Below, in pieces: positions 9,597 to 41,766 of a stretch of 64,000 bases of DNA. This DNA comes from Micavibrio sp. UBA2400. Lineage in GTDB: Bacteria; Pseudomonadota; Alphaproteobacteria; UBA2400. The position numbers were made by a program, and so were the translations under genes. Location: NCBI GenBank assembly GCA_002343265.1, contig DDSC01000038.1, positions 5,454 through 69,453 on the forward strand. Reading direction: 5' to 3'. Below the pieces are notes generated by a model. That model saw nothing but the letters and a program-made list of their open reading frames with translations, ran no database searches and was not told where the DNA came from. Every line of letters begins with the position of its first letter. Position 1 is the stretch's first letter.

Positions 9597-9627
9597 CTTG
9601 CGTACGCTTGCATCTCTCCCCACATCT
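9597..9627 (+). promoter_or_regulatory. Candidate sigma32 (RpoH)-type heat-shock promoter upstream of hsp20
   Basis: CTTGCGT and CCCCACATCT with a 14-nt spacer match the sigma32 consensus CTTGAAA-N13-15-CCCCATnT. They lie about 55 nt upstream of the Hsp20 ATG, and rpoH is encoded 3 kb away. Confidence 0.4.
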
Positions 9628-9683
9628 GGCTCGTAAGCGGTGCCAGTGTGGGCCGCGCAACTGTGATGCCAAGGAGGATCACC

Positions 9684-10118
9684 ATGCGTACTTATGATTT
9701 TTCCCCAATGTTCCGTTCGGTCGTCGGCTTTGACCGCCTGAACCGGATGATGGAGAGCGCTCTTGAGGTGGAAGAGGGCGGCTATCCGCCCTATAATATC
9801 GAAAAGTCAGGCGAGGATAGTTACCGCATCACTATGGCAGTAGCTGGCTTCGCGCCGGATGACATTGATGTTGTGGTCAAGGAGAATACCCTGACCGTTA
9901 GTGGTAAGGCCAAGGTGTCGGAAGAGGAAAAAGGCAAGACCTTCCTGTACCGCGGTATTGCCAGCCGGGCCTTTGAGCGACGCTTCCAGCTGGCGGATCA
10001 CATCAAGGTTGGTGAGGCCAAGCTGGCGAATGGGTTGCTGTCGATTGATCTGACCCGTGAGGTGCCGGAGGCCAGCAAGCCCCGCACTATTACGGTGAAG
10101 GCGGACACGACCCACTAA
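9684..10118 (+). CDS. Small heat-shock protein, Hsp20/alpha-crystallin family (IbpA-like)
   Basis: 144 aa from the ATG at 9684 with an AAGGAGG RBS. The alpha-crystallin domain motifs 'YPPYNIEKSGEDSYRITMAVAGF' and 'LLSIDL' are present. Confidence 0.85.
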   Translation: MRTYDFSPMFRSVVGFDRLNRMMESALEVEEGGYPPYNIEKSGEDSYRITMAVAGFAPDDIDVVVKENTLTVSGKAKVSEEEKGKTFLYRGIASRAFERRFQLADHIKVGEAKLANGLLSIDLTREVPEASKPRTITVKADTTH

Positions 10119-10130
10119 ATAGGTAAGGCT

Positions 10131-10160
10131 GGGCGGCGGGTGCTGTGGTGCTCGCCGCCT
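10131..10160. terminator. Possible bidirectional terminator hairpin after hsp20
   Basis: GGCGGCG...CGCCGCC inverted repeat followed by a T-rich tract. The T-run is weak. Confidence 0.3.
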
Positions 10161-10722
10161 AGTTCTTTGCGGTGTCCTGACTATCGAGTGAGATCAGATT
10201 GAAGGTTTGGCTGACCGCCAGTCGTTTGAAATCATCAACCGACAGGGGTAGGGCATCAGGGGGTGTCGCGTGATTTCCGCGTCTATCCACGGGGCAACGG
10301 ATTGCCCAGCCATCCTTGAGGGGAATGTAGCTTGGCCAGCTGATCAGCATCAGCGGTAGGGCTGGGTCATCAAAGGGCAGGGCTGGCTGTGCACCAATCA
10401 GCCCGGCAAATTCAGCATCGCCGGGGATATGCAGATCGCTCATGCGGCGGGCATAGCTGATGCCGCGCTTGGTATCGGTATCAGGGATCGCCATGTGCGG
10501 CGCGCTGGCATTGCGAATCCAGCCGAGTGGAGGGCGTCCTGCAAAAATTAAACCGCTGATCTGGGCATTGCCTAGAGCCCGTTCGGCCCCGCAAAGCACG
10601 ACGAAGGACCGGACTTCTTCGACTGCTCTTTCAACGGCGCGTTGATGGGTTTTTATAGCGTCAAGTGAGCGTCCGGCGGCACGAAAGTAATGGCAGGGAG
10701 GTTCATTTGCCTGTAACTGCAT
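10159..10722 (-). CDS. Conserved hypothetical protein (possibly DUF1285-like; contains a 'PPCH' motif)
   Basis: 187-aa ORF with no upstream RBS. The 'EPPCHYF' motif is reminiscent of the 'NPPHCGD' motif of DUF1285. Family assignment is uncertain. Confidence 0.35.
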   Translation of the reverse strand: MQLQANEPPCHYFRAAGRSLDAIKTHQRAVERAVEEVRSFVVLCGAERALGNAQISGLIFAGRPPLGWIRNASAPHMAIPDTDTKRGISYARRMSDLHIPGDAEFAGLIGAQPALPFDDPALPLMLISWPSYIPLKDGWAIRCPVDRRGNHATPPDALPLSVDDFKRLAVSQTFNLISLDSQDTAKN

Positions 10723-14093: not shown

Positions 14094-16103
14094 CTAGAAT
14101 AGCCTCATAAAAACAGTTGTTACGATGGCGGCAGCGGCGGCCATACCTCCAATAAAAGCGGTAATCTGCCGCCCCTGCAGCAATAAAGCTTTGTTCCGGG
14201 ATTCATTTGCGGTGCTGATCTCGCGCGAAAAATGCTCCAACTGCTGCCATTCCATCTGGGCCGCGTTAAACCCGTCTTCATCGGCTTTTTGCATGTTGCC
14301 ATCATCAATAATCGATAGCATCTGATCCAACTCGCCGCGTTTGGATAGCTTAGTGACGTCACGGATAACCTTTTCGCGCAGATTGCGATTGTGGTAGCGC
14401 TCCATTGATGGCTGCAGGAGACGCGCCAGCCATTCTGCCGTGCGTGGCATCGGTTCCGGATGAAATTTGCGCTGAACTTCTGCAAGGATGGAGAGAATGG
14501 CCACAGCCCGCTGGCCAGGCTGGCTATTCGCTGCTAGGAGCGGGAACAGGCGGTCGTTCATGCGCTTGTGATGACTCAGAATATACGCGGCAATATGGCG
14601 GTCCATCGGCTCACTGCGCGTATCGTTATCCTTGACGGTCTCAGCGTAGGCTTCAATAGCGATACATAAAGCCTTAAGTGAGAGCGGGAAATGTTTGGCG
14701 GTAAGGGGGCTAAGGCAGGGGCAGTCCGGATAGAGTTCATACACGACGCGCTCAACGCCAAAGCCATGCTGCGGCCGGTCGAGCAGCATACGAATACCTT
14801 CATATTGCTGCAAGAGTGACGCATGCTCAGCGCCGTAGTTGGACTGGGAGTTAGCCCAGTGAATAATGAACTGGGCGGCGATCAGGTCGGCGACATTACG
14901 GGGGGATTGTCCCTTGATCAGCGTGTCGGCCAGATAGCCACCAAGGCCAGCTGGGAGGGTAGATATGTCCCTGAAACGGATTGGGGCTGGCGGGTCAAGT
15001 GTTATGGCAACGCGGGTAACGGTACGCTCGGCTGGGCTGCCGCCACGTTGAGCAGCTCCCGCGGAGGAGATGGCTTCAACAATTTTTTCCGCTTTGGTTT
15101 CATCACCAAGAGAGCGACGAACCCAGCGGTCCAATGAGCCATCCTCAATACCACGCCCAGCCTGATCGACATTACGAGCCATGGCCTGTGCCAGCAGACG
15201 AACATTATTGTAGGTCTGGCCGGCAATTTCATAGCCACGTTGGGCCTTGGGGATTTGTGCTGCAGGTTTACTACCGGTTCGGCGACCACCCAGCCAGTGG
15301 GTGATATCATCAAGAGCCCAGCGTTGCGCCGGATCGTCGGACAAAAGGCCACGGAAGATTTCACTGTAGGCACTGGGGATTCGGGCTCCTCCGCTCAGTG
15401 CCATCAGGCTGCCTTTTTCAACTTTTGCTGTAATCAGCTCTTCGATCGGTAGATTAATAGCAGGAAGCTTGCCCAGAAGCACACTCAAGAGCGTTACACC
15501 CACGGCGTAGATATCATCACTGGCTGAGGCAATGCCTCGTGCGGCAGGAGCAGCCATCAGCCGTTCAATCGTACAAAAGGCCGGATGCTGGTATTTCCCG
15601 GGAATCGCGCTCAGATAATCGCCAAGCTGGATGCTGCCACTGGAGGCGTCACGCAGGAAGATATTGGTTGGATTGATGCGCCCATGATTGCAGCCGGACA
15701 GATAGATATCGCGAATTCCCTCGGCAAGAGACTCAACCATCTGTCGGAAGAAGAGTTCGTTATTGAGCGGAGCGCGATCCTCGGTCAGCGAGGGGATAAG
15801 TGCAGCACCGGTCGGCCGTTCGTAGAGAAGGACGGGGGTTTGCTGGCCAAAATCGGGCCAATAGGTAATATCAGCCTCAATAAAACGCAGCACAGATGCG
15901 CTATTGATTTTGAGGGCATCTCCCAAAACACTGAAGCGAGGCAACTCGCCCGGCTTGGCAACCAGCGCAAGCAGGTTCGTACTTCCGCGTGCCCCTTGCG
16001 CCATATAGGCCAAGGCACCCGGCGTATTGAGATCGCTCAGGGGATTGCCTGAGAAAATCTCATATTTTCCGGCACAGAGGGTAACGCGCTCGTTGCTGGC
16101 CAT
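14094..16103 (-). CDS. Hanks-type protein-kinase-fold protein with degenerate catalytic motifs (predicted pseudokinase), C-terminal TM anchor
   Basis: The N-terminal 250 aa align to the kinase subdomains. The Gly-loop/VAIK analogue is 'GALAYMA...LVAK'. The catalytic loop reads 'NHGRINPTNIFL' where HRDLKPxN is expected (Asp changed to Arg, Lys changed to Asn). 'LGDYLS' stands in for DFG. 'DIYAVGVTLLSVLLGKLP' matches subdomain IX. There is about 400 aa of unknown C-terminal region and a terminal TM helix 'ITAFIGGMAAAAAIVTTVFMRLF'. Confidence 0.55.
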   Translation of the reverse strand: MASNERVTLCAGKYEIFSGNPLSDLNTPGALAYMAQGARGSTNLLALVAKPGELPRFSVLGDALKINSASVLRFIEADITYWPDFGQQTPVLLYERPTGAALIPSLTEDRAPLNNELFFRQMVESLAEGIRDIYLSGCNHGRINPTNIFLRDASSGSIQLGDYLSAIPGKYQHPAFCTIERLMAAPAARGIASASDDIYAVGVTLLSVLLGKLPAINLPIEELITAKVEKGSLMALSGGARIPSAYSEIFRGLLSDDPAQRWALDDITHWLGGRRTGSKPAAQIPKAQRGYEIAGQTYNNVRLLAQAMARNVDQAGRGIEDGSLDRWVRRSLGDETKAEKIVEAISSAGAAQRGGSPAERTVTRVAITLDPPAPIRFRDISTLPAGLGGYLADTLIKGQSPRNVADLIAAQFIIHWANSQSNYGAEHASLLQQYEGIRMLLDRPQHGFGVERVVYELYPDCPCLSPLTAKHFPLSLKALCIAIEAYAETVKDNDTRSEPMDRHIAAYILSHHKRMNDRLFPLLAANSQPGQRAVAILSILAEVQRKFHPEPMPRTAEWLARLLQPSMERYHNRNLREKVIRDVTKLSKRGELDQMLSIIDDGNMQKADEDGFNAAQMEWQQLEHFSREISTANESRNKALLLQGRQITAFIGGMAAAAAIVTTVFMRLF

Positions 16104-20093: not shown

Positions 20094-22451
20094 ATGATGA
20101 AACTTATTTGCCGCAACACAGGTCTAATCAAGCGCGACCAAGGCGGAGCCATCATGCTGATATTTGCGCTTTTGCTCGTGCCGATGTTGGGGTTGGTCGG
20201 TCTCGCTGTCGATACCGCTCGTGCGTATGCGGTTAAGCAGCGTTTGCAGGAAGCTATTGACTCTGCTTCGCTTGTGGCCGCTAAGAATTTTTCTGCCCCT
20301 AATCGCGATCAATTGATCAAAGACTATTTTGAAGCGAATTGGCGCACCGGCTTTATGAACACGGCAATGCCAACCCTGACCTTTTCAGTTAATCAGGCTC
20401 AGCGCACGGTTACAGTCAATGCGGTGGCCGTAATGCCAACGATTTTTGCGAAATTTATTAATTACCCCACCGTTACAGTGGGGACGCTAACCTCAGCCGT
20501 TAGTTCGCTGACTTATCTTGAGGTCGCGCTTGCGCTAGATAACACTGCGTCTATGCGAAATGAAGTTCTGCCCGGCGTTCGGCGCGTCGATGCGATGAAA
20601 ACGGCGGCAAAAAACTTTATTGATACCCTGTTTACGGTCAATGGCGTGCCGCAGGATACTATCCCTAATATGTGGGTTAGCGTAATTCCCTTCACAAGTA
20701 TGGTCAATGTCGGTGCCCAGCATACCAATTTTCTTAAAGCCAATACTTTAAATGGCATCTTGTGGGACTATCCGCGCAATTCAACTGCGCAGAATAGTTG
20801 GCGTGGATGTGTGTTCGAGCGCTCTTTCTATGAAAATGGTGCATATGCCGGACGCGATCTGACTGATCATTCTCCCGCTGTTGAGGCTTTTTTCCCTTAC
20901 CATGTTGTTCCGGCAGGGTTGCAGGCGTTTAGTCTGTGCGCTGCACCGCCACCATGCCCACCTGGCCAGAAAAAATGCTCTACAGCCCCAAATCTTGGTT
21001 GTGTTCCGCAGCCTTTTGTATGCCCCCCGGCTCCTCCATCGCCGCCACCTGCACCACCGCAGCCACCGCAACCGCCACCGCCGCCGCCGCCGGTGCCCCC
21101 GTGCACGGTTGATGGCTTCCCCTGCAAAGTAGCGCCACCGTCTTTGAAAGGTGTTGGTCTTGAGGCGCCATCTTCCAATCTTCACAATGTTGCCGCTTGT
21201 CGAAGTGCTCCGCCAGCTGCGGGGGTGGCTACATATATCGACTCCTACGCTATGAGTCCGATATCGCTTGTTTTCCAAACGCCAACCGGGATCAAAGTCT
21301 ATTATCCATCACCGGATGGGATGACTCCGATGGCCTTCAATAAGGCTTTTCCGGGCTACGATGATATGTCCGTCAGCGGGCCAAGGAATGTAAGCGGAGA
21401 TAGTATCTGTTGTCATGGTTCCAACGGTGGTGACCGTCTACAAAATATAGTAAGTTGGACAGCGACTGGACGTTGGATTGAGCCGTGGCCGACCAGCGGG
21501 ACGCCTAAGATTGGTGGTTGGGGTAACTCAGGCTGTGGCCTGCCCCTGTTGCCGTTGCAGGATAACCGCATCAAAATCAAAGCCAAGATTGATGAGATGG
21601 ATATTCCTCCACTCAAGTTTCCAGCCCTATCGGCTGGGCACCCGAGTAATCGCCCGGATCTTGGTTATGTCGGAACCTTGATCAATCAGGGACTGATCTG
21701 GGCGTGGCGGTCCTTATCGCCAAACTGGCAGGGCTATTGGAAGGAACCCAGCGGTACACCTTTGCCGAATAACCTTCCGCTGTCGTACACAACCGACGGA
21801 AGCTCGAAGGCCGTCGTTGTGATGACGGATGGGCTGAACTTTTTAGAGGACCCGTTCGCTCGTATTTCCCAGAATGGGGCTCTCTATTTTGGCCAGCTGA
21901 CATTAACTCTTTCGGCCGCAAGCCCCAACCTGAGTCCACATAATGCAGTTATCGATAATAATTATCTGACCGACTCTTCGGCCTACGGCACCTTAGGACG
22001 TGACATGACTCTCGCTCCGGGGGGGCAGTTCCGCGCCTACAACTTCTGTCGCGTCCGCCAGATGGCAAATCTTGAGCCGCATCTCTCGCCAGCACTCTGG
22101 GGCTGTAAAGAGTATGACGGCATGATCCGCAATGCGGCAGGGACGGTTTTGCGTTCCGGGGTTGGCACGTGGGGGCCTTATGATGTAACGTCAGCTCTGA
22201 CCGGGCCGTATTATACCGAGCTGCAAAGCCGACTGCTGAAGACCTGCCAGAACATGGTTGATAAAGGCATTCGGATCTACTTCATCCTGTTCGATATCGA
22301 TGATAATCCGCAGAAGGCTTCGGCTATGGCCGCGTTCAATACCTGTGTATCAAATCTGGGTGGCGTGTATGACGCCAGCAGTCCTGCACAGCTGAACAAC
22401 GCTTTCCAGAACATTGCGATCAGCCTGCGCTCGCTCCGGCTAAAACAATAA
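20094..22451 (+). CDS. TadG-like (TadE/TadG N-terminal motif) von Willebrand factor A domain protein with large Pro/Cys-rich insertion
   Basis: The N-terminal pseudopilin-like segment 'GGAIMLIFALLLVPMLGLVGLAVDTARAY' matches the TadE/G family. The vWA MIDAS motif 'LALDNTASM' lies near aa 147 and the matching 'VVVMTDG' motif near aa 590. Between them is a low-complexity tract 'PPPCPPGQKKC...PPAPPSPPPAPPQPPQPPPPPPPVPPC'. Confidence 0.6.
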   Translation: MMKLICRNTGLIKRDQGGAIMLIFALLLVPMLGLVGLAVDTARAYAVKQRLQEAIDSASLVAAKNFSAPNRDQLIKDYFEANWRTGFMNTAMPTLTFSVNQAQRTVTVNAVAVMPTIFAKFINYPTVTVGTLTSAVSSLTYLEVALALDNTASMRNEVLPGVRRVDAMKTAAKNFIDTLFTVNGVPQDTIPNMWVSVIPFTSMVNVGAQHTNFLKANTLNGILWDYPRNSTAQNSWRGCVFERSFYENGAYAGRDLTDHSPAVEAFFPYHVVPAGLQAFSLCAAPPPCPPGQKKCSTAPNLGCVPQPFVCPPAPPSPPPAPPQPPQPPPPPPPVPPCTVDGFPCKVAPPSLKGVGLEAPSSNLHNVAACRSAPPAAGVATYIDSYAMSPISLVFQTPTGIKVYYPSPDGMTPMAFNKAFPGYDDMSVSGPRNVSGDSICCHGSNGGDRLQNIVSWTATGRWIEPWPTSGTPKIGGWGNSGCGLPLLPLQDNRIKIKAKIDEMDIPPLKFPALSAGHPSNRPDLGYVGTLINQGLIWAWRSLSPNWQGYWKEPSGTPLPNNLPLSYTTDGSSKAVVVMTDGLNFLEDPFARISQNGALYFGQLTLTLSAASPNLSPHNAVIDNNYLTDSSAYGTLGRDMTLAPGGQFRAYNFCRVRQMANLEPHLSPALWGCKEYDGMIRNAAGTVLRSGVGTWGPYDVTSALTGPYYTELQSRLLKTCQNMVDKGIRIYFILFDIDDNPQKASAMAAFNTCVSNLGGVYDASSPAQLNNAFQNIAISLRSLRLKQ

Positions 22452-30280: not shown

Positions 30281-33200
30281 ATGACCGAACATCCGGACAC
30301 CCAGACCCTGCATCGCGAGGGTACAACTGAGACGGGGGCTGTTCCGCCCAAGACAGGAGCGCACCCTGTACGGGCAAGTGTCGGAACATCAACCGTTGGT
30401 CGAGCTGGGGCGCCGGTACGAACCTCAGCGCCTGCGCCAGTTCACGCGCTACCCTCGCTTCCGGCTTGGGCGATTGTCGCGTCGGTTGTCTGGGTGGCGG
30501 TTGCCGTTGGTTATCTGTTTGCCGTTGGCGGCTGGTCCTCATCACCGGGGGCAATCGGCGCCATCATTGCCGGTCTGGCCGCGCCACTGGTGGTGGTGTG
30601 GCTGGTGGCGTTCATGCAGCAGCGCGCGCTTGAAGTTGATATCATAACCGGCCCGATCCGCCGTCAGTTGACAGCTCTGCTCTCTCCGGGAGCAGCTGCT
30701 GATGTGCGTATTCGCCGCATTACCGAGGCTTTAGCCGAACAGACCGAAATGTTGCGCAATGCCGCTAACGTGGCGCTTGAAGACTCTAGCGCAGCCATGA
30801 CGGCGATCACTCGTCAAAGTGGTGAGTTGCGCCGGTTGTCCGCTGAAGCCATGCTCGATATCGGTAAGGTCGGTAAAACAGCAGAGCAGACATTAACGCA
30901 TTTGCGCGAAACACTTAGTCATCTTGGCACTCAAACGGGAGATGAACGAGAAAAAGCGCTCAAGATGGTCGCTGAGTTGGAGAAGAATTTTACCAGCGTA
31001 CTGGGGCAACTTGATAAAGTTTCACAGCATTATGAGGGGCGTCTGGGCAAACTGAATGAAACCTCTCTTCAGCTGGAGGATCGCACCAAGTCCTTGATCG
31101 GCCTGACCGATGGTCTTAATGCCAAGGTTGACGATTCCGCTGGTGAAGTGATGGGTGATATTGCCCGCCTTGAATCCGCTGTAGCAGAACTTAGTCAGCG
31201 CAGTGCGGCCATTGCGCACCTGCTAGAACGCCCCGTTGAATCACTGGAACGGGCTGCTGGTCAGCTTGATGGGCAGCTGCGTCAGTCGCATAGCCTGCTG
31301 CAAAGTGCGACCAATAATCTTGAAAAAATTGGTGATGTTGTTATGGGGCGCGCTAACGCACTGGTTGCGAACTTGTCGGATCGCCTCAGCAGCATGGAAC
31401 TCGTTGGTGCTAAGCTAGTTTCTCTAGGTGTAGCGGCGCAAAATGATACAGGCCGGTATGTCGGACAGATCGAAGAAGTGGCGGAGCGGATCCGGGACTA
31501 TGGCGCGGAAAGTGAGCAACGCCTTCGGTCTGTAATTTCCGAACTGACAGCCGCCACTGAGGCTGGGTTAAGTCGTGGCGATGCTGTTATTGACCGATTG
31601 CAGGATGGCACCAATGCTCTCAAGCTGGCGGTTAGTGGGCATGATGATCGCTTTGCCGCGCTGGCCGATGATATCGAAGAGCGCACACAACGACTGCGTG
31701 AGTTAGGGCGCGATGCACGTGGACAGCTGGAAGACGTCCAGCTCTCGCTGTCTTCGGCCCAGGATAGTGTTGAAAGTCAACTTGAACGCCTGAATCATGT
31801 CAGTGACAAGCTGAGTACCGAGCTGCAGCGCAGCGCCAGCAGTGCCTCCACGCTCTCGGAAGCGACCCAGTTGGCGGGCGAGCGGGCACAGGCACTCTTC
31901 AACCTGAATGACAAGACCAGTGATGTCATGAACATGATTGCCGCGCGTTTGGTCGAGCAGCGTGAGGAGGTTGAGGCGCTGGCAGGAAATCTGACAACGC
32001 AGATCGAATCCATGCAGGCGGCACTGGTTAGCCAGCGTATGGAGCTGCAGCGCACCGGGCAGGATGCCAGCCGTCAAAGTGAAGTGGTCCAAGCGGCTCT
32101 GCGCGAGCAGGTCGGGGCGATCGCTGCCGCGGGCATGGATGTTGCTGCCCGTATTGATGTGCTGCAGCAGCGGGTGCGCAACGAAGTGGGCTCGTTGACA
32201 GAACTGGGAGATGTGCTGGAAGGCAAACTGGCAGCGCTGGCGCAGACAGCCCAGCAACAGGCGGGAACTTTTACCACGGCTAATGCGGAGATGAGCCGTG
32301 AGCAGAAGGCTTTGCAGGCGCTGACCGACCGCTCGCGACAGGATTTGACCGGTCTTCTCACGCATCTGAGTGAAACTCGTGCTGCTGCTGAAACGGCACT
32401 CGGAGGAGTAAACGAGCAATTAGTACAGCTTTCGGCCCAGCTTTCGGCTGCCGAGGATGATCTGCATCGTATGGCAGGTGATGTGAGCACCGAGCAGCTC
32501 CGCTTGCGCGATCAAGGTCAGGGTATGAATGAGGCTTTGGCCGCTGCCTTGCAGCGACTGGAGACACTCGACAAATCTCTGCACACCACAGGTGAGCATG
32601 TGGCTCATCAGGGCGATAAGGCCGAGGCACAGCTTGCGCGCGTCCGCACGGAACTGAATAGCAGCCGAGAGCTTTTGGTCGCTGAGAATAGCGAGGTTCA
32701 ATCTCTTCTGACCCAGCTTTATGCGCAAATGCGAGACGGGCAGGAGCAACTGGAGCAAGTAAAAGTAGAAGCGACTGAGGCCAGCCGTCTGTGGGCACTG
32801 GCGCAAAGCCAGTTGCAGCAGAGCCAGTCGGCACTCACGCAGAGCCGTGAGCAGGCTCAGCAGGATATTCGTGCAGTTGACGCCAGCGTCCACGAGGCCA
32901 CACGCTCACTGACGCAGGCTCGTGCCGAAGCGGAATTGGCGCACGAAACTCTACACCAGCAAAGTGAACGGGCGCAGGCACGCATCCATGAGCTTGAGCA
33001 GGATATGGCTTCGTTGCAGGATGTAATTGCTCGCCTCACCGAGCGGTCGGATTTACTCTCGCGGTCGTTGGCTGATCAGGCCGCCCAAGCCGAGATCGCG
33101 GGGGGTCGTCTGCAAAGCGCCACCCGGATTGCCGATCAGTCGGCTGCTGTGTTGGTCGAGCGAAATAAAGACCTGCAAGCGAGTGCCCACGCACAGGAGC

Positions 33201-36200
33201 AAGCCCTTGTTAGTTTGCGCGCCGAGTTGGATCGGGCGAGCGGCGAGCTGGCACAGCGAGGGGAGCTGAGCCAAGAGCGCCTCGAAAGTGTCGTCGCCGC
33301 CATTCTCTCCGCCTCGAGTAACTTGCAAGAACAGACGCGCCAGAGCAGTGCGGCATTGGCACAGGGCGAGCATAACTTTATTGCCGTGCGCAGTGCCTTG
33401 GCGACACACACGGCATCCGTATCGGACGACCTGAGCCGCCTTGGCAGTCAGGTCTCAGATTTGCAAGCTGACCTGACCGCCACGGGACAGCAAGCTCAAT
33501 CGGTCGGAATGCAATTGGCGCACCAGGCTGAGCAGAGTGAGGCGGTCCGTGCCGGTATCGAATCTGTCGCTGCCCGTGCTGATAAGGCTGCTCTGTTGTT
33601 GACAGAACGGCTAAGTGAAATGGATATGGCCTCGACCAGTCAGATGGCCGCGTTTGTACGATTAACCAGTCAACTGGAGCAACTTGGTCAGCAACTTGAG
33701 TCCAGCAGTGACTCAAGTCAGTCGCATCTTCAGGTCTTACTGGCCCAGCTAGCCCAAACAAGCGCAGCGCTCACTGCCAGCAGCCAACAAAATGGCGAGC
33801 TGGTGACTTTGGCTCAGGATCGCCTGCAGGAAAGCGGCTTGGTCCTCGACCGGCAGGCCCAGCAGGTACAGACATATTTGGCAGCTCTGGAAACCCGCAG
33901 CCAGCAGGTTGAAGCGAGTTTGCGCCAGGCCCGTTCACAGGTTGGTGAGCTGACCAGCCAGCTCGAAGCGCAACAGTCGCGTAGTGAGCAGCTGGGCGAA
34001 AGCACAGCCGCTTTGACGCAGAATAGCATATCTGCCCTGAGTGATCTTGAGCAGCGCTATGAACAGATGGAAGCTGCGGCCCGCAGTCAACAAGATGAAG
34101 TACAGCGTCTGACTTTGCAGCTTGAAGATGCCACAGCGTCGTTGCAAGCTGATGCCAGCCGCTCTGCCAAGGCGTTTGAGACCCTGCTGTCAGGTATCGA
34201 GACGATAGCCAACGCGGCTGACCATTCGTTCACATCTGTGTTACAGCAAATGGAGAAGGCTGGCTCGACCCTGCAGCAGCAAGGAACAGTCAGTCGGGAT
34301 GAATTGACCAATCTGCAACTCCAGATTGTTCACGCCACGCAAGAGCTGGCCGAGCAGGTTGAGAGTGCTCAGCAGTCAATCCGCAAGGTGCTCGGCGAAA
34401 ATGGTGCCCGTTTCATGCAGGCATTGCAAGCCGCGCAGGAGGGCTTGAGCGGCCAGCTGGAAAATTCCCGCCAACAGGTCAGCGTATTCCTGACTGAGGC
34501 CAGCAGCCAGTTCTCGTCTACTGCCATGCTAACAGAGCAGAGTTTGGCTACTCGTCTTGGCGATCTCGACTCGATCAAGAGCAAGCTTGAGGCTGTCAGC
34601 CTGAGCGCCGCGCACGGTGTGGATGCGCTGACCAGCAGCAGTAACCGTGCTAGCGAGCAGATGGCTAGCCAGCACGAACACGTTCAGGCTCTGGCCGTTC
34701 AGTCCAGCCAACTGGCAAGCCAGTTGCTAGATGCAATGCAGCAGCTACGCAGCATTGGCGGTGAGCATACTAGCGGACTGGAGCAATTGTCCGGCCAGCT
34801 CAGCGAGCAGTTGGAACAGCTTCGACTAAGTGGCCAGCAGGCGCGCAGTGAGCAAGAACAGCTCTTGGCGCGGACCAGTCAGGCACAGGCTACCGTGAAG
34901 GAAATGTCCGAGCAGATCAGCACGGCCCGCTCTTTGGTTGATGCCGCAGCCGACTATACGGCTGCTCGTCTGGCCGATGTTTCAGCAGACTTTGCCAATC
35001 GTGTGCGCGAAGGCGAGGGCTTGGTTACTACCGCGACAACCCGTTTGCGCGAAGTCGAGCAGCGCATGGCTGAGACCGGCTCCCTCATGGAGCAGCGCCA
35101 AACCGAGTTGCTGGCGTCAACACGTACGATCATGCAGCAGCTGGAGGTGCTCGACAGTGGGTTCCGCACAGCGTTGGGTAACAGCAGCGCGGTTCAGTCG
35201 CAGTTGTCAGCACAAGCGGAGCATAATCAGCGACTGCTCACAGGGTTGACCCAGTTGAGCGAGATGGGCACAGCCTCACTGGAGGAACAGACTCAGCGTC
35301 TGGCACGTCTAGCCCAGCAGGCTGCCAGTGATACCCAGCGTATGCTGGACATGGGTGACCGGATTGAAGGCCAGCAGGCTAGTGTTCGCCAGGAGGCGCA
35401 AGCCGCTGTTACGGTCTTGCAGGCAGTACAAGCCCAGTTACAGCGTGCTGGCCAAGAGGGGAGCGAACAGCTGTCGGCGACCGAGGCGCAACTCAGCGCA
35501 GCTCTGGTCGGCATGATGCAACGTGTACAGGAGCTGGCTGCATCAAATACCGGACTGACCAATCAATTGCGGACATCTATGGGCCAGATGGGGCAAGCCT
35601 TGGTCCTGCTTCAGGACAGCGGGCGCAAGCTGGGAGCTGAGTTGAGTGCGACCGGTGACCAGTTGCAAGGTAAGGCTGCCGGGTTAGTGGTGAGCGGGCA
35701 ACAGCTTGACCGCGAGCTTAAGTCTCGCCTTGAAACCATGCAGGAATCGCAGCGGCGTATTGATGGCATTTATACGCACCTCAGTCAGCGTCTGGCCGAG
35801 CTGGATAGTCGCACCTCACACTATCTGATCGATCTCGATCAGCGTAGTGAATCGTCATTCGCGCGTCTTAATGATGGCGTTAGCAATCTGGAAAAGCTAC
35901 CGGATCGCGTCCAAGAGGCGGAAAGTCTCTTGAGCGCCCAAGTGGATATTGCTCGCCGCGAAATTCTAAGGCTACGTAGCGATCTGGTGGAGCTAGGGCA
36001 GACTGTACTCGCGCAGAGCGATCAGGCAGGAGCTAGTACTGCTCAGGTGTTGGCAAATCTGCAGCAGATGAGTGCGCATAGCCGTGCCATGGCTGAGCAG
36101 ATCGAGGTATCGAGCCAAGGCATGGCTACAGCAGCGCAGTCGGCCTGGCAGACAATTCACGCTGCGGTTAGTGAAAGCACCTCCGGTGTGGCGGGGCTTA

Positions 36201-37741
36201 CAGACCATCTGAAGGGGGCAGAAAACCGGACACAATCGCTGGTCGAACTGGCGCGGAGTGGTGTGGATGGGCTGTTGGATCGTGTCAACGACATGGGTAG
36301 CTTGCTGGATAGCGCTCTGAGCAAGGCGAATGGTGCCTATGCGACTCTGGCTGCAGGCGGGTTGCAGCAGATTGAAACGCTAAGCCAAACTCTGGCGGAT
36401 AACGCCGCGCGGCTCGATCACAGCACAGCGCAAGCGCACGCGCGAATTCAGGAAGCTGATGTCTTGGTGCAGCAGCATCAATCAGCCGTGCAGGGTGTTG
36501 CTGAAGCTATGCTTCCGCAGTTGACCAATGTTCGGCAGGAGTTAGAGCAGATTCGGGAAGGTTTGAGCGGCCTTGATAGTCGGTTGCATTCGCTACCTGC
36601 GTCCTTGGGCGGCCAGCAGCAGCAGCTGGAAAGCTTTACCTCTGCAATCGATCGCACGTTGAATCAAGTTGCGGCGCTGCAGATGCTCTCACGTGATATG
36701 GCGCAAGAGCATTTCGCGCTGGCTGAACAACTGCAATCGCATGAAACAGCACTGACGACTGGCCTCGGCGAGCTTGAACAAAGCCTCACCAAGTTGGATG
36801 CCCAAATTCACTCGGGCGTCGTTAGTCATATGTTGAGCGCGGCAACGCAAGCTCAGGCTGTGGAGCGGACATTGGCGCAACTTCTCAATCAGTCGGCTGG
36901 GCTGGATCAGGCGATTGCCAGCATTCGTCAATCGGTGCTGCGCGAAACACAGACGCTTGAGCAGGCAAAAGATACAGTGGGCAGTGTCGCGCAAAAGGCT
37001 GTGAGTGATCTCCAGGCTGCTGGTTCAGCTCTTGCGGAGAGTTATGGCCAGTTACAGCGTGGCACCCAGCTCTCGCAAACAGGGTTGTTACAGACTCAGG
37101 AAGAAAGCCAGCGCTTGGCTGTGCGTCTTGAGCAGATGCGTACACTGCTCAAAGGACTGACGAGTGCCATCTCGAATGATCTCACCGAATGGCAGACCGA
37201 AATGCGCAAACAACTGACCGGCGTAGCAGCTGACCTTGCTAGTCCGGCCGTACGGGCGCAGTTGCCGCTTCTCTCACCTTCGCCTACGCCTGTGCGTGCC
37301 ACTCTTCCGGCAGCCGGATCCAGCTCGACGCAATTGACAACGGAGGCCTTACAGGCAGTGGCTATTGATCTGTACCGTCTGCTGCGCAATGAGATGCCTG
37401 ATCTTCTTAAGTCCTTACCCACTCCGGCGGCCCGCCGTGCACCTATGGGACCGGGGGAAGCACGGGCATACACCCAGGCCTTACTCGAGGTAACTGGCGC
37501 GCCGTTTGCCACGGCAGCAAAGCAGCTTTATGCAAACAACGCTGAGTTCCGCTTGTATGTTGATCGCTATTTAACCCGCTTTGAGGCACATTACGACGTT
37601 TTGGCCCGTAACCCGGCAGGCCTAGACGAAGCGAAGGCCTATCGGGCCTCAGATGTCGGACGCCTCTATAGCCTGTTCAGTGGAGCGATTGAGCGTCGCG
37701 GGAATGTAAGCGCAGGGCAGCCGGAGAGCAGCCGTACATGA
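30281..37741 (+). CDS. Giant (2486 aa) inner-membrane-anchored coiled-coil protein: two N-terminal TM helices followed by about 2300 aa of Q/A/L/E/S-rich predicted coiled coil and a short non-repetitive C-terminal domain
   Basis: A single uninterrupted 7.46-kb ORF; every antisense ORF across it is short. The TM hairpin is 'LPAWAIVASVVWVAVAVGYLFAVGG' then 'AIGAIIAGLAAPLVVVWLVAFMQ'. The rest is a heptad-like pattern rich in Gln, Ala, Leu, Glu and Ser with no enzymatic motif. There is no MCP signalling-domain motif. The stop overlaps the next ATG as ATGA. Confidence 0.8.
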   Translation: MTEHPDTQTLHREGTTETGAVPPKTGAHPVRASVGTSTVGRAGAPVRTSAPAPVHALPSLPAWAIVASVVWVAVAVGYLFAVGGWSSSPGAIGAIIAGLAAPLVVVWLVAFMQQRALEVDIITGPIRRQLTALLSPGAAADVRIRRITEALAEQTEMLRNAANVALEDSSAAMTAITRQSGELRRLSAEAMLDIGKVGKTAEQTLTHLRETLSHLGTQTGDEREKALKMVAELEKNFTSVLGQLDKVSQHYEGRLGKLNETSLQLEDRTKSLIGLTDGLNAKVDDSAGEVMGDIARLESAVAELSQRSAAIAHLLERPVESLERAAGQLDGQLRQSHSLLQSATNNLEKIGDVVMGRANALVANLSDRLSSMELVGAKLVSLGVAAQNDTGRYVGQIEEVAERIRDYGAESEQRLRSVISELTAATEAGLSRGDAVIDRLQDGTNALKLAVSGHDDRFAALADDIEERTQRLRELGRDARGQLEDVQLSLSSAQDSVESQLERLNHVSDKLSTELQRSASSASTLSEATQLAGERAQALFNLNDKTSDVMNMIAARLVEQREEVEALAGNLTTQIESMQAALVSQRMELQRTGQDASRQSEVVQAALREQVGAIAAAGMDVAARIDVLQQRVRNEVGSLTELGDVLEGKLAALAQTAQQQAGTFTTANAEMSREQKALQALTDRSRQDLTGLLTHLSETRAAAETALGGVNEQLVQLSAQLSAAEDDLHRMAGDVSTEQLRLRDQGQGMNEALAAALQRLETLDKSLHTTGEHVAHQGDKAEAQLARVRTELNSSRELLVAENSEVQSLLTQLYAQMRDGQEQLEQVKVEATEASRLWALAQSQLQQSQSALTQSREQAQQDIRAVDASVHEATRSLTQARAEAELAHETLHQQSERAQARIHELEQDMASLQDVIARLTERSDLLSRSLADQAAQAEIAGGRLQSATRIADQSAAVLVERNKDLQASAHAQEQALVSLRAELDRASGELAQRGELSQERLESVVAAILSASSNLQEQTRQSSAALAQGEHNFIAVRSALATHTASVSDDLSRLGSQVSDLQADLTATGQQAQSVGMQLAHQAEQSEAVRAGIESVAARADKAALLLTERLSEMDMASTSQMAAFVRLTSQLEQLGQQLESSSDSSQSHLQVLLAQLAQTSAALTASSQQNGELVTLAQDRLQESGLVLDRQAQQVQTYLAALETRSQQVEASLRQARSQVGELTSQLEAQQSRSEQLGESTAALTQNSISALSDLEQRYEQMEAAARSQQDEVQRLTLQLEDATASLQADASRSAKAFETLLSGIETIANAADHSFTSVLQQMEKAGSTLQQQGTVSRDELTNLQLQIVHATQELAEQVESAQQSIRKVLGENGARFMQALQAAQEGLSGQLENSRQQVSVFLTEASSQFSSTAMLTEQSLATRLGDLDSIKSKLEAVSLSAAHGVDALTSSSNRASEQMASQHEHVQALAVQSSQLASQLLDAMQQLRSIGGEHTSGLEQLSGQLSEQLEQLRLSGQQARSEQEQLLARTSQAQATVKEMSEQISTARSLVDAAADYTAARLADVSADFANRVREGEGLVTTATTRLREVEQRMAETGSLMEQRQTELLASTRTIMQQLEVLDSGFRTALGNSSAVQSQLSAQAEHNQRLLTGLTQLSEMGTASLEEQTQRLARLAQQAASDTQRMLDMGDRIEGQQASVRQEAQAAVTVLQAVQAQLQRAGQEGSEQLSATEAQLSAALVGMMQRVQELAASNTGLTNQLRTSMGQMGQALVLLQDSGRKLGAELSATGDQLQGKAAGLVVSGQQLDRELKSRLETMQESQRRIDGIYTHLSQRLAELDSRTSHYLIDLDQRSESSFARLNDGVSNLEKLPDRVQEAESLLSAQVDIARREILRLRSDLVELGQTVLAQSDQAGASTAQVLANLQQMSAHSRAMAEQIEVSSQGMATAAQSAWQTIHAAVSESTSGVAGLTDHLKGAENRTQSLVELARSGVDGLLDRVNDMGSLLDSALSKANGAYATLAAGGLQQIETLSQTLADNAARLDHSTAQAHARIQEADVLVQQHQSAVQGVAEAMLPQLTNVRQELEQIREGLSGLDSRLHSLPASLGGQQQQLESFTSAIDRTLNQVAALQMLSRDMAQEHFALAEQLQSHETALTTGLGELEQSLTKLDAQIHSGVVSHMLSAATQAQAVERTLAQLLNQSAGLDQAIASIRQSVLRETQTLEQAKDTVGSVAQKAVSDLQAAGSALAESYGQLQRGTQLSQTGLLQTQEESQRLAVRLEQMRTLLKGLTSAISNDLTEWQTEMRKQLTGVAADLASPAVRAQLPLLSPSPTPVRATLPAAGSSSTQLTTEALQAVAIDLYRLLRNEMPDLLKSLPTPAARRAPMGPGEARAYTQALLEVTGAPFATAAKQLYANNAEFRLYVDRYLTRFEAHYDVLARNPAGLDEAKAYRASDVGRLYSLFSGAIERRGNVSAGQPESSRT

Positions 37742-38814
37742 TGCATTGTCTTTACCTGACATTGGTACTTGTACTGCTGGCTCCCCCTGTTTGGGCGTGT
37801 AGTTGTCCGGATATCCCGCTCGCGGACAAGGTCAAGGCAGCGAGTTTCATATTTCAAGGTACTGTTGTTTATCCGCGACCGGATATGCCGCCTGAACAGA
37901 CATCGTTTCGGATTGATGCCCATCTGAAAGGGCGGGACGGTGCGTCGGCGAATATTCTTCGGCTATCTGTACATTCGCCCCCGGCTTGCGCCGCGACGTT
38001 CGAGCTGGGCAAGACGTATCTTGTCCTAGCCGAGGGGACTTATGAAAGCGGCTATACAACGGATGCCTGTCATAGTTTTCCAGCACAGATAACAGATGAC
38101 CCGCGAGCGCTTGAGGTGCGTGATTTACGCCTCAAGACAGGTCAATCCATTCTTCACGGAAATCAGATCGAAGTTCCTCAGTCCCGCCTCACACTTGAAA
38201 AAATCCGGACACAGGCGAAGACCTTCTACTTGCTTGATGATAACGAATTGGCTTTACGTCTTTACGTCACCGCTGCGGCGCGGTCCCACAACTCGCCTGT
38301 TGATTTATTGGGTCAGGGTCATGCTTACTTGCGTCTTATGATGGCAGATTTGGCGTTGCAGAGATTTGATGATGTGCTGGAAAAAGATAGCCAGCGGGCG
38401 CAGGCGTGGTCTGGACGCTATCAGGCACTCGCGCTGCTTGGTCGTTGGTCGGAGATCCCTGAGAAAGCGAATCTTTCCGGCCTGTGGCTTCGGTATGCCC
38501 GCATACCAGTAGTTCCAGTTGCTGCTGATTTCTCGACAGTCTGGTGGAGAGAAATTGATGCTGCCGGGTTGCACTTTAAGGATGTTTCGTTCCGCGGTGC
38601 GACGTTATCCGATGTAAATTTCTCTAAAAGCAACTTAGAGAATGTGGACTTCACGGAGGCTGTTTTGCACCGCGTCGATTTTTCAGGAGCTAAGCTCAGC
38701 GGTGTAAAATTGCCAAGCAATCTGAATACAATTATCTGGGACGAGACGACGCAGTGGCCAAAGGGCTTCGACCCGGCTATTCTGGCCATTAGCAGGCCGA
38801 GTCAGGCTAAGTAG
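37738..38814 (+). CDS. Secreted protein with an N-terminal TIMP/NTR-like domain, a central helical region and C-terminal pentapeptide repeats
   Basis: The signal peptide 'MMHCLYLTLVLVLLAPPVWA' is followed by a mature N-terminus 'CSCPDIPLADKVKAASFIFQGTVV'. Further Cys residues sit at mature positions about 64 ('PPACAATF') and about 91 ('TTDACHSFPA'), reproducing the TIMP N-domain C1-C70/C3-C99 disulfide spacing and the 'TCSFVAP' motif. C-terminal tandem pentapeptide repeats are 'LHFKDVSFRGATLSDVNFSKSNLENVDFTEAVLHRVDFSGAKLSGVKL'. Confidence 0.6.
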   Translation: MMHCLYLTLVLVLLAPPVWACSCPDIPLADKVKAASFIFQGTVVYPRPDMPPEQTSFRIDAHLKGRDGASANILRLSVHSPPACAATFELGKTYLVLAEGTYESGYTTDACHSFPAQITDDPRALEVRDLRLKTGQSILHGNQIEVPQSRLTLEKIRTQAKTFYLLDDNELALRLYVTAAARSHNSPVDLLGQGHAYLRLMMADLALQRFDDVLEKDSQRAQAWSGRYQALALLGRWSEIPEKANLSGLWLRYARIPVVPVAADFSTVWWREIDAAGLHFKDVSFRGATLSDVNFSKSNLENVDFTEAVLHRVDFSGAKLSGVKLPSNLNTIIWDETTQWPKGFDPAILAISRPSQAK

Positions 38815-38840: not shown

Positions 38841-39851
38841 ATGTCGATAACCCAAAAAATTCTGATGGGCCTACTGACTTGTGCCCTTCTGGCTGGGCTT
38901 TGGTATAGCTACGTCATGGCCATCCCGCGTGTAGCGGTAACACAGGTTGTACGCGGGTCGGCTGTTGAATTGGTGTATGCTACAGGAACAGTTGAACCTG
39001 CGGTTCAGGCCACGGTGTCCCCTGAAGTTAATGGGCGTATTGCAGAGTTCTATGCCCAAGAAAACGATATTGTTAACCTTGGTGGGCCGTTGGCTCGCCT
39101 ATTTGACGCGGAGCAGTACGCCGAAGTGTCAGAGTTGATGATCCGTGTGGCCAATGAAGAAACCGCTCTGCGGCGCGATGAAGATCTGCTCAAGCGAAAA
39201 GTCGGCAGCCGCGAGGAGTATGATAACTCAAAGTCTGCACTTGAGCAGTCAAAGGCTCGCTTGGCCGCCGCTCAAGTGCGCTTGCAACAGAGGACGTTAC
39301 GTTCTCCGATTTCTGGTGTTGTTCTCCGTCGTGATCATGAAATAGGCGAAACTGTAACGCCCGGTATGCGCTTGTTTGTGGTGGGACAGCTAAAGCCATT
39401 GCGCGTTACTATGGAGATCGATGAGGAAGATATTCCTCGTGTGCAGATCGGACAAAAAGTCTTATTAAGCAACGATGCCTTTCCGGAGCAGGTTTTTACA
39501 GCTGCCGTGAGTGAGATCACGCCTTTAGGTGACAGCAGTAGCAAAACTTACCGCGTGCGTGCGCAGTTGCCGGAAGAGACGGTATTGCCGGTTGGGATGT
39601 CAGTAGAGGCTAATGTTGTTTTAACAGAGAGAACGAATGCTTTGCTTATACCGGCAACCGCTATGCAGGATAGTCATGTCTATCTTGTGGGGTCCGATCA
39701 CCGCGTTAAAAAAGTATCTATAAAAGTAGGCTTAAGTGGAATTGAAAATATTGAGGTAATTCAAGGCCTGTCTGATGGGGATCTCATTGTGAGAGGGCCA
39801 TCTGTAGATCTGCGGGATGGGCAGCGTGTGAAAGTACGCCGGGAGCCATGA
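38841..39851 (+). CDS. HlyD/MacA/DevB-family periplasmic adaptor (membrane fusion protein)
   Basis: 336 aa with an N-terminal TM anchor, coiled-coil hairpin, lipoyl and beta-barrel segments ('VSPEVNGRIAEF', 'LRSPISGVVLRRDHEIGETVTPG'). A CTGGAG RBS is present. The stop overlaps the next ATG. Confidence 0.8.
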   Translation: MSITQKILMGLLTCALLAGLWYSYVMAIPRVAVTQVVRGSAVELVYATGTVEPAVQATVSPEVNGRIAEFYAQENDIVNLGGPLARLFDAEQYAEVSELMIRVANEETALRRDEDLLKRKVGSREEYDNSKSALEQSKARLAAAQVRLQQRTLRSPISGVVLRRDHEIGETVTPGMRLFVVGQLKPLRVTMEIDEEDIPRVQIGQKVLLSNDAFPEQVFTAAVSEITPLGDSSSKTYRVRAQLPEETVLPVGMSVEANVVLTERTNALLIPATAMQDSHVYLVGSDHRVKKVSIKVGLSGIENIEVIQGLSDGDLIVRGPSVDLRDGQRVKVRREP

Positions 39852-41098
39852 TCCTCCCGCTTGCCGCCCGTATTGCCTTTCGTCATCTGGTCTACCGTAA
39901 GAGGCAATCTCTTGTCTCCATCCTTGGTGTTGCTTTGGGGGTCGGTTTCTTTATTGCCCTCGCGGCCATGATGCAGGGGTTTCAAAGCTATTTTTTACAA
40001 ACTGTGGTCGATGTCTCGCCCCATATAATAATTAATGATGATTATCGGGCCCCGCTTCGGCAACCTGCTGAGGTGCACTATCCAGCAGCCATCTTGACTA
40101 TTCATGGCTTGAAGCCGAAGGAGGAACGACGGGGTATTCGTGGCTATGAGGCAATCACGAATTATCTACATGGGCTGCCCGGGATTCAGGTTTCACAAGC
40201 TTTGGAAGGACAGATTTTTCTGACTTTTGGCAGCACGGATCGCAATGCAACAGTGCAAGGCATTGTTCCGGCCGATGAGCGTCGGGTTATTAAGCTGGAT
40301 GATGATCTGATTGCAGGAAGCTTCGATAATCTTGAAACAGTTCCCAATGGGATTATCGTTGGTATCGGACTGGCGGAGCGTCTTGGGGCTGGCATGGGAG
40401 ACCGCCTGACTGCTGTATCGACATCCGGCGTCATAATGCAGGTCAAGATCGTTGGGCTCATTGAGACGGGTATTACCGCCATAGATCGCGGCCGTGCCTA
40501 CATGTTGCTCAAAAAAGTCCAGGTTTTACAAGGACTGAATAACCGGGTAAGTCGGATCAACATTCGGTTACCCGACCCCGAGAGAGCACAGGATTTAGCC
40601 TCCCAACTTGAGCAGAAATTCCGCTATCGAGCGGAGAGCTGGCAGGAGGCCAATGCCGGCATATTCGGTGTGTTTGTTGTTCAGAACATCGTCATGTACT
40701 CGACGGTTACAGCGATCATGATCGTGGCGGCCTTTGGTATATTTAATATCATTTCGACGATTATCCATGAAAAAGTCAAGGATATCGCCATTTTACGGTC
40801 GCTTGGCTTTTACGAAAAAGACATCCGGGCAATCTTTATTCTGCAGGGTGTCGCTTTAGGTTTGCTTGGCGCACTGCTGGGTTGGTTGGTCGGGTATGGT
40901 CTTACATCGGCGCTGGCCGCAGTTCGTGTAAATATCAAAGGCGAGATTAAAACCGACCATCTAATGATTCTCTGGTCTTTTAATCACTATCTCTTGGCGG
41001 CTCTGTTTTCCCTTGCCGCGGCAATAGTGGCAGCGTGGATACCCGCGCGCAAGGCGGCATCAGTGCAGCCGGTTGAGATCATCCGGGGTGTTTCATGA
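39848..41098 (+). CDS. ABC transporter permease, FtsX/MacB/DevC/LolC-like (4 TM with large periplasmic domain)
   Basis: 416 aa with an N-terminal TM 'LVSILGVALGVGFFIALAAMMQGFQSY', a roughly 220-aa periplasmic domain and three C-terminal TM helices with the FtsX-like motif region. ATGA coupling occurs at both ends. Confidence 0.8.
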   Translation: MILPLAARIAFRHLVYRKRQSLVSILGVALGVGFFIALAAMMQGFQSYFLQTVVDVSPHIIINDDYRAPLRQPAEVHYPAAILTIHGLKPKEERRGIRGYEAITNYLHGLPGIQVSQALEGQIFLTFGSTDRNATVQGIVPADERRVIKLDDDLIAGSFDNLETVPNGIIVGIGLAERLGAGMGDRLTAVSTSGVIMQVKIVGLIETGITAIDRGRAYMLLKKVQVLQGLNNRVSRINIRLPDPERAQDLASQLEQKFRYRAESWQEANAGIFGVFVVQNIVMYSTVTAIMIVAAFGIFNIISTIIHEKVKDIAILRSLGFYEKDIRAIFILQGVALGLLGALLGWLVGYGLTSALAAVRVNIKGEIKTDHLMILWSFNHYLLAALFSLAAAIVAAWIPARKAASVQPVEIIRGVS

Positions 41099-41766
41099 GT
41101 ACGCTACTGGAGGCACGAGGGCTTACCCGTATCATAGAGGGCGAGGTCTCGACCACCTTGATTGAGGATATTAGTTTTTCCATAGCATCTGGAGAATTTG
41201 TATCTGTAACGGGGCCTTCTGGTGGGGGCAAGTCATCCTTGCTATATTTGTTGGGTCTGATTGACCGGCCAACACGAGGTACCGTCCTGATAGAGGGGCT
41301 GGATACCGGCACGCTGGAAAGTGATGCGCTGGCACATTTACGCCTGACAACTCTTGGTTTTGTGTTTCAGTTTCATTTTTTGCTAGAAGAATTCACAGCA
41401 TTAGATAACGTTATGCTGCCCATGCGCAAGTTGGGGGTTCTGTCTAATCAGGCTATGATTGAGCGCGCATCGGAGCTGCTTGCTCAGTTCGATCTGGCGC
41501 CACACATTCATAAACGCCCCGGCCAGCTCTCTGGCGGACAGCGACAACGGGTCGCTATTGCGCGGGCACTCGCCAATCAGCCCAAACTGATTCTGGCGGA
41601 TGAACCGACTGGCAATTTGGATACCCGCAATGCAGACAGTGTCTTTGCAGCCTTTCGCGATATCGTAAATAATTTTAACGCTTCTGTTATGGTCGTGACT
41701 CACGACCCCGATCTAGCCGCAAGGGCAGACCGGCACCTGAAGATCATTGATGGCCATCTCGCCTGA
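41095..41766 (+). CDS. ABC transporter ATP-binding protein (MacB/LolD/DevA-type)
   Basis: 223 aa with Walker A 'GPSGGGKSS', the ABC signature 'LSGGQRQRVAIARAL' and Walker B 'LILADEPTGNLD'. Confidence 0.85.
   Translation: MSTLLEARGLTRIIEGEVSTTLIEDISFSIASGEFVSVTGPSGGGKSSLLYLLGLIDRPTRGTVLIEGLDTGTLESDALAHLRLTTLGFVFQFHFLLEEFTALDNVMLPMRKLGVLSNQAMIERASELLAQFDLAPHIHKRPGQLSGGQRQRVAIARALANQPKLILADEPTGNLDTRNADSVFAAFRDIVNNFNASVMVVTHDPDLAARADRHLKIIDGHLA

Follow-up and report, generated by a model that had tools for sequence, protein, structure and literature searches.

What might a bacterium do with a single protein of 2,486 amino acids (aa), most of it one long helical rod, and does such a protein belong to any kind already described? 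The question is raised by a 64,000-nucleotide stretch of contig DDSC01000038.1 from Micavibrio sp. UBA2400 (assembly GCA_002343265.1), hereafter called the window, whose plus strand carries the complete gene of this giant protein at positions 30281..37741, stop codon included. The answer reached here is that the protein is very probably homologous to the superfamily of GPR, the growth-pole-ring protein of Agrobacterium, and RgsE, its orthologue in Sinorhizobium meliloti. Homology and pole function taken together, i.e. that it is a divergent member of the GPR/RgsE-type superfamily and a giant inner-membrane-anchored cytoplasmic scaffold, make up the account that we consider rather probable; the specific function as a scaffold at a pole, which is drawn from its relatives, is proposed more tentatively, and we find it about as easy to doubt as to believe, if not slightly easier. 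Proteins of this kind have been described before, and distant homologues of RgsE from outside Rhizobiales are already in print; what is new is the subfamily, with its altered C-terminal module, its other rod periodicity and its conserved downstream partner gene.

The gene begins with an ATG, has a GAGG 7 nucleotides upstream of it, and forms one open reading frame (ORF) of 2,486 codons with zero internal stops; the original prediction (a reading of the same DNA from its letters alone) had likewise described a single ORF for 2,486 aa. Fourteen further full-length homologues of 1,934-2,544 aa are collinear with its product from end to end, and the gene is real and intact.

The evidence that carries the relationship comes, in the first place, from the C-terminus. 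The architecture of the giant protein is similar to that of the Agrobacterium growth-pole-ring protein, and this resemblance was put to the test on the sequences. The Agrobacterium sequence (Atu1348, 2,115 aa) was taken from Fig. S3 of PMC8262873 as an optical character recognition (OCR) copy holding 2,099 of the 2,115 residues; a Rhizobium orthologue of 2,382 aa, read from locus L008 of Rhizobium ruizarguesonis (3390..10538), is 42.6 % identical to GPR over the full length. (The public gene calls at L008 break this one continuous 2,382-codon ORF into pieces.) When the giant protein is compared with Agrobacterium GPR by BLASTP, only the C-termini align (aa 2321-2472 with GPR 1962-2097, 28 % identity, E 1.7e-5), and comparison with the Rhizobium orthologue gives E 3.1e-8. 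A hidden Markov model (HMM) of the C module built from the window subfamily only scores 29.2 bits against the Agrobacterium and 41.6 bits against the Rhizobium protein, scores that none of ~950 shuffled controls attains, the best of them reaching 11.4 and 6.5 bits. Reciprocally, a profile raised from Rhizobium GPR finds aa 2348-2472 of the giant protein at E 4.6e-13, a value that is scaled to 1.84e9 sequences and precedes the entry of any subfamily member into the profile. The C-module consensus, E-S-L-x-S-L-S-V-D ... EFR-x-Y-V-x-RY ... SDxGK-LY over ~120 aa, is present in the giant protein. Judged by these sequence comparisons, its C module is homologous to the C-terminus of GPR/RgsE, a relative that the original prediction had overlooked. 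That prediction had also described the last ~150 aa simply as non-repetitive. The end is indeed distinct from the rod, yet it really consists of a Pro-rich linker (aa 2321-2345, 37241..37315, with 6 Pro in 25 aa and a confidence below 50 at model residues 85-108) followed by a conserved compact helical domain of ~125 aa (aa 2346-2470, 37316..37690), for which AlphaFold2 (AF2) proposes six helices at a predicted local distance difference test (pLDDT) score of 76-91; the C-terminal string quoted at the time starts at aa 2426.

The opposite end of the protein appears to be tied to GPR through intermediate sequences only. The N module consists of a transmembrane (TM) hairpin plus the first ~85 juxtamembrane residues, with R-x-x-[DE] after the second TM helix, and its profile covers aa 61-199. 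When 1.84 billion representatives were searched exhaustively by phmmer with a query that fuses aa 50-420 of the giant protein to its aa 2240-2486, 215 proteins came up at E up to 1e-3; most of them match the hairpin and juxtamembrane region at their own N-terminus. In this search, the N region of the giant protein matches P0156 and P0160 at ~1e-5, and its C module matches P0087 (7e-9) and P0138 (2e-6); the N region of GPR matches the same four proteins (P0156 at 1.7e-8, P0138 at 2.2e-8, P0087 at 3e-8 and P0160 at 4e-5). P0087 and P0138 are therefore two-way links, joined by their C modules to the giant protein and by their N-termini to the N region of GPR. Iterated profiles seeded from the window reach GPR at both ends in collinear order, aa 102-245 at 1.9e-13 and aa 1986-2097 at 4.2e-23.

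How far does this relationship extend? The superfamily is defined here by the two terminal modules, and both are carried by 88 of the fetched proteins, which range from 415 to 2,545 aa and include members of 700-920 aa. At E up to 1e-6, the C-module profile finds at least 900 proteins, of which the best-scoring are mostly contig-end fragments from Agrobacterium, Rhizobium, Sinorhizobium, Mesorhizobium and other Rhizobiales, annotated 'hypothetical protein' or 'kinesin'. The GPR orthologue at L008 and the 775-aa P0138 (locus L009, 8001..10328) have a common neighbourhood, with a small Hpt gene upstream on the opposite strand and an Mla-like operon (MlaE, ABC, MlaD, ABC_trans_aux) downstream, which suggests that short and giant forms are positional orthologues. 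A separate class of proteins of 1,815-3,478 aa (e.g. P0045, P0050, P0054, P0058, P0073, P0111 and P0121) has the N module and no C module; its N motif reads ...QRA.DV....EPLRRQL..I.GE.G.AE.RIRRFN.A..EQL.LL... and its C-terminus ...LQQQA...L.KIS, and one such protein is encoded between mutS and an Fe-ADH gene (L010). The window subfamily, by comparison, is small, with eight full-length clusters at 50 % identity among the 1.84 billion representatives. Among GTDB species representatives only two metagenome-assembled genomes (MAGs) match, and these are labelled 'Micavibrio sp.' and 'Bdellovibrionales bacterium'. NCBI taxonomy files Micavibrio under Bdellovibrionota, whereas genome phylogenies place it in Alphaproteobacteria; both the Ros/MucR gene of the window and the range of taxa in which the protein family occurs are consistent with the alphaproteobacterial placement.

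The anatomy of the giant protein follows from hydropathy, periodicity, conservation across the 14 homologues and two AF2 models, which covered aa 41-460 and aa 2240-2486 and are both all-helical in their structured segments; the first of them (pLDDT 64, predicted template modelling score 0.26) is useful for helix boundaries only. The N-terminal tail (aa 1-58, 30281..30454) is poorly conserved and predicted to be disordered, the pLDDT being below 50 at the beginning of the first model. It had been called basic and Pro-rich over ~55 aa; Pro-rich it is, with 7 Pro in the first 55 aa, but at a net charge of +1 it is hardly basic. The hairpin comes next (30455..30616), with TM1 at aa 59-81, the eight-residue loop VGGWSSSP at aa 82-89 and TM2 at aa 90-112. 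Kyte-Doolittle hydropathy gives exactly two hydrophobic segments in the whole protein, separated by this loop, and AF2 places helices at aa 62-81 and from aa 89 on, so that the two TM helices and short loop of the original prediction hold good. Residues S68, W71, Y78, G98, P102 and W107 inside these helices are invariant across the homologues, which argues for specific intramembrane contacts and not a passive anchor. The motifs S..W in TM1 and P....W in TM2 are common to the superfamily, the former occurring in GPR as well.

Behind the hairpin lies the juxtamembrane helical region (aa 113-400, 30617..31480), the best-conserved part of the protein, in which AF2 places helix breaks at aa 135-138, 216-220 and 373-387. 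Mean identity to the 14 homologues is 29 % over aa 1-100 (tail and hairpin), rises to 50-70 % over aa 101-400, falls to 16-35 % over aa 400-1000 and to 6-14 % over aa ~1000-1500, and recovers to 28-45 % over aa 1600-2486. The least conserved stretch is the variable middle of the rod (33278..34780), which has many indels and a gap fraction of up to 0.6.

The rod as a whole spans aa 113-2320 (30617..37240), has a net charge of -102 and contains no internal repeats; there are only 3 Pro between aa 200 and 2200. The dominance of Gln, Ala, Leu, Glu and Ser noted originally is borne out by the composition of the giant protein (A 14.5, L 13.3, Q 10.9, S 10.0 and E 8.0 %), in which K makes up 1.7 % and Cys is absent. 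The hydrophobic periodicity of the rod has one peak at 3.55-3.57 residues (3.56 on average) and another at 2.28. Each exceeds shuffled sequences by more than 20 standard deviations, and between aa 130 and 2300 the helical periodicity keeps a z above 30. The two peaks agree with 25/7 and 25/11, as heptads with frequent stutters would give. In a scan of a/d occupancy, 27 % of 28-residue windows lie beyond the 99th percentile of shuffles, and in-register heptad runs extend over 71 aa at most. The heptad-like register claimed for the coil is thus found on average; a continuous register is not, because breaks are frequent. If fully extended, the ~2,200 helical residues would measure ~300 nm.

What do the known proteins of this architecture do? 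GPR combines two N-terminal TM helices, Pro-rich ends and a continuous helix of 1,700 aa. At the growth pole it assembles into a 200-nm ring made up of six foci; its C-terminal 221-332 residues are required for function, and its loss leads to round cells (PMC8262873). It resembles the giant protein in having Pro-rich regions near both ends, a continuous helix of ~1,700-2,200 residues without any enzymatic domain, a homologous C-terminal module and the same order of TM hairpin, rod, Pro-rich linker and C module. RgsE (SMc00190, 2,089 aa), the S. meliloti orthologue of GPR at 42 % identity, has this architecture too; its membrane anchoring and cytoplasmic location are experimentally verified, it is found at the growing pole, and two-hybrid assays show an interaction with TolQ, RgsA and RgsS (PMC7327166). 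Brucella RgsE is located at the new pole. For GPR/RgsE, the literature describes round or branched cells when the protein is depleted or overproduced. Because the topology of RgsE, a member of the same superfamily, has been verified by experiment, the cytoplasmic location proposed earlier for the coil of the giant protein gains support.

The comparison drawn at the time was with TipN, the new-pole landmark of Caulobacter crescentus, which has two N-terminal TM helices, a coiled-coil-rich cytoplasmic region and disordered termini. This likeness of topology is upheld by hydropathy, AF2 and periodicity, which agree on two N-terminal TM helices followed by a coiled-coil-rich region in the giant protein. 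TipN, at 882 aa (PMC13170164), is ~2.8 times shorter. A size three times that of TipN had been noted; for this family it is normal, as GPR and RgsE demonstrate. The comparison may be more than analogy, and the superfamily includes members of 700-920 aa that carry both terminal modules. One paper describes GPR as similar to TipN and another calls TipN the analogue of GPR.

Taking the relatives as a guide, the giant protein would most likely serve, at a pole or division site, as an inner-membrane scaffold that assembles by itself. Held by the hairpin in the inner membrane, it would have its two ends on the cytoplasmic side, and the rod would self-associate into a higher-order assembly at the new pole or division site. 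The conserved ~300 juxtamembrane residues and the C module could then dock partners that steer envelope growth or polarity, with the variable middle of the rod presumably acting as a spacer.

A number of observations weigh against this reading of the protein as a GPR-type scaffold. Direct similarity to GPR is limited to ~125 C-terminal residues at 26-28 % identity, and the N-module HMM, when run directly against the two GPR sequences, scores a marginal 7.2 and 9.5 bits, values that 17 and 3 of 998 shuffles attain. The rods of the two proteins are not alignable and, whereas those of GPR and its Rhizobium orthologue show periodicities of 3.65 and 2.2 (hendecads, 11/3 and 11/5), the giant protein shows 3.56 and 2.28; the other superfamily members tested peak at 3.55-3.6, like the window subfamily. 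GPR, according to the literature, has multiple Apolipoprotein domains (PF01442) along most of its rod, and it passes the Pfam model, which serves there as a classifier, whereas the giant protein has a single match to it (aa 1210-1413) at 17.4 bits against a cutoff of 90. In its C module, GPR reads P...W..Y..G[DE]....FTRRL (the OCR copy drops one R), as do most aligned members; the giant protein lacks W..Y..G[DE]..FTRRL and has a ~9-residue insert instead, the subfamily-specific insert lying at aa ~2372-2390. The segment that takes the place of the motif, ...PAARRxPMxPxxAR.YT..., stands between the first helix and EFR-x-Y-V-x-RY, is longer, contains Pro and is unstructured in AF2. The synteny of GPR, with Hpt upstream and the Mla-like operon downstream, does not recur at the window locus. 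Furthermore, Krol et al. found that distant RgsE homologues outside Rhizobiales occur without other Rgs proteins, none of which were present in the non-Rhizobiales orders that they examined, and concluded that their role may differ (PMC7327166). RgsE itself acts in the Rgs/Tol-Pal network of polar-growing Rhizobiales, and none of those partners was seen in the 64-kilobase window. There is, in addition, a difference in the TM loop, which has 8 residues in the giant protein and ~20 in GPR. Because its Apolipoprotein match stays below threshold and the hendecad signature is absent, the giant protein is filed in the wider superfamily and not as a GPR orthologue.

It is partly from these differences that the strongest rival draws. 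Could the protein be a lineage-specific polar or envelope tether that inherited only the end modules, has a role unrelated to polar growth of the Rhizobiales type, and works with a co-transcribed periplasmic protein, for example as an organizer of division, of the flagellar pole or of the pole that attaches to prey, in an epibiotic predator resembling Micavibrio? The candidate partner is encoded by the next gene (358 aa, 37738..38814, plus strand), whose ATG overlaps the stop of the giant gene (ATGA) and which lies directly 3' of the giant gene in 6 of the 7 informative loci. Its product has a signal peptide ending in ...VWA|CSC, so that the mature form starts with C-x-C, and is predicted to be periplasmic. 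Four Cys, at mature positions 1, 3, 64 and 91, are invariant in it; its middle (aa 162-239) is weakly TPR-like, and pentapeptide repeats follow at the C-terminal end. The Cys spacing resembles the C1-C70/C3-C99 pattern of TIMP/NTR domains. Both proteins evolve fast. Whereas the housekeeping neighbours are 64-87 % identical to those of a Micavibrio-labelled MAG and two metagenome contigs, the giant protein is only 35-40 % identical, and giant and partner together fall within 35-45 %. Genomic context, C-module motif and rod periodicity are all unlike those of GPR, and the nearest genomes are MAGs labelled Micavibrio or Bdellovibrionales. However, only eight residues of the giant protein would be periplasmic, so that it is difficult to see how a periplasmic partner could touch it directly; adjacency of the genes does not in itself prove interaction; and the most divergent subfamily member (L004/L012, giant gene at L012 10001..17053) has no partner gene. 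On this balance such a tether strikes us as somewhat unlikely, albeit the most serious of the alternatives. At L004/L012, the place of the partner is taken by an ORF of 130 aa, followed by an FtsE/FtsX-like pair (a 226-aa ABC protein and a 300-aa FtsX-domain protein).

There is also a bolder conception. An ancient GPR/TipN-type landmark would have been rebuilt in a Micavibrio-like lineage, one that perhaps does not elongate at its poles in the manner of Rhizobiales, as a ~300-nm, stutter-rich coiled-coil tether which, with its co-transcribed and fast-evolving periplasmic partner, would form a trans-envelope organizer of a lineage-specific polar structure, e.g. the prey-contact pole; the end modules would then define one alphaproteobacterial superfamily of pole landmarks, in which rod length (415 to ~2,500 aa) would be the evolvable variable. 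We regard this conception as distinctly improbable as it stands, more so than the tether by itself.

It is less likely still that the giant protein is a lipid binder of the apolipoprotein or phasin kind, coating membranes or lipid bodies through amphipathic 11-mer helices in the way proposed for the GPR rod. The idea finds some encouragement in the sub-threshold Apolipoprotein match, in the weak matches of P0005 to both Apolipoprotein and Phasin, and in the stress laid on apolipoprotein similarity in the GPR literature. That match, however, scores 17 of the required 90 bits, far below threshold; the rod is without the 3.67/2.2 hendecad signature of GPR, having 3.56/2.28 instead, and it is strongly acidic. 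We therefore give the lipid binder very little weight.

Scarcely tenable is the identity suggested by database names, namely an SMC-like chromosome-segregation ATPase, although JGI names the homologues P0002 and P0022/P0023 'chromosome segregation ATPase' and NCBIfam SMC models match at E 1e-21. The scores of 73-76 bits compare with cutoffs of 567-729, and nothing but the coiled-coil arms of the models is matched (positions 228-524 and 253-886). A search of the giant protein for a Walker A motif found none, Pfam gave no match to SMC_N or an ABC head domain, and an N-terminal TM hairpin is foreign to SMC proteins. The likeness to SMC and Rad50 arms is that long helical segments of the giant protein give weak profile matches; the difference is that SMC proteins have ATPase heads and a hinge, which it lacks. 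An SMC identity is refuted by the absent heads, and the arm matches are compositional and fall far below the cutoffs. The Pfam scan of the whole protein yielded ATG17_like and Apolipoprotein, both sub-threshold, and no other domain. Identity as a methyl-accepting chemotaxis protein (MCP) is likewise rejected, there being no match to MCPsignal (PF00015) at E up to 1; the earlier statement that the protein has no enzymatic motif and neither MCP nor SMC identity is therefore sustained, with no Walker A, no MCPsignal and no Pfam domain at full score.

The last alternative, that the ORF is an artefact, either an accident free of frameshifts or a collapsed repeat assembly, draws on nothing except the unusual length and is rejected with next to no reservation, because self-comparison of the gene found no self-matches and no internal repeats in DNA or protein, an identical giant protein is read on six contigs from separate assemblies, and the 14 homologues, which are of similar length, align with it in order from one end to the other and show patterned conservation.

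The surroundings of the gene mark the window as an ordinary chromosomal region. Its upstream part holds genes for a class II ribonucleotide reductase, rpmE, a sigma factor, gltX, ros/mucR, rpiB, glyA, nrdR, nusB and sufE, after which an NMT1-type binding protein gene lies on the minus strand upstream of the giant gene; the downstream part holds the pentapeptide-repeat partner gene, a HlyD/MacB/ABC trio, gap, sodB, two SQS_PSY genes, uvrA, ssb and gyrA. The conserved order is nrdR, nusB, sufE, binding protein, giant gene, pentapeptide gene. Directly after the partner gene, the trio (38841..41766, plus strand) encodes a HlyD-type adaptor, a MacB/FtsX-type permease and an ABC ATPase; it is not kept at homologous loci, so its link to the giant gene is probably coincidental. 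An Rfam scan detected a single tRNA in the window, and no rRNA. The class II ribonucleotide reductase (4429..8259, minus strand, ~1,226-1,276 aa) has a split Ribonuc_red_lgC match with a weak unrelated match between the halves, and an intein or an insertion may be the cause. The plus strand encodes, at 20094..22451, a protein of 785 aa with a Tad domain (pilus-assembly TadG-like), and the minus strand, at 14094..16103, one of 669 aa whose only match, to protein kinases, is weak; several neighbouring ORFs of 140-570 aa have no match in Pfam.

What, then, does this locus mean for the family and its host? To our knowledge, unipolar growth in Rhizobiales has no candidate scaffolds other than GPR and RgsE. 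The window subfamily retains the TM hairpin, the juxtamembrane region and the C module, and exchanges the type of rod, part of the C module and the gene neighbourhood; comparison with GPR therefore indicates which parts are likely to bear function and which vary freely. The same two un-modelled end modules unite proteins from 415 to ~2,500 aa. Neither of them is covered by Pfam or NCBIfam, and consequently such proteins are annotated 'hypothetical', 'kinesin' or 'chromosome segregation ATPase'. A profile for each module would mend this annotation and make it possible to ask directly whether TipN is a member of the superfamily. If the host is an epibiotic predator, the giant protein would, finally, offer a handle on how a pole is organized in such cells.

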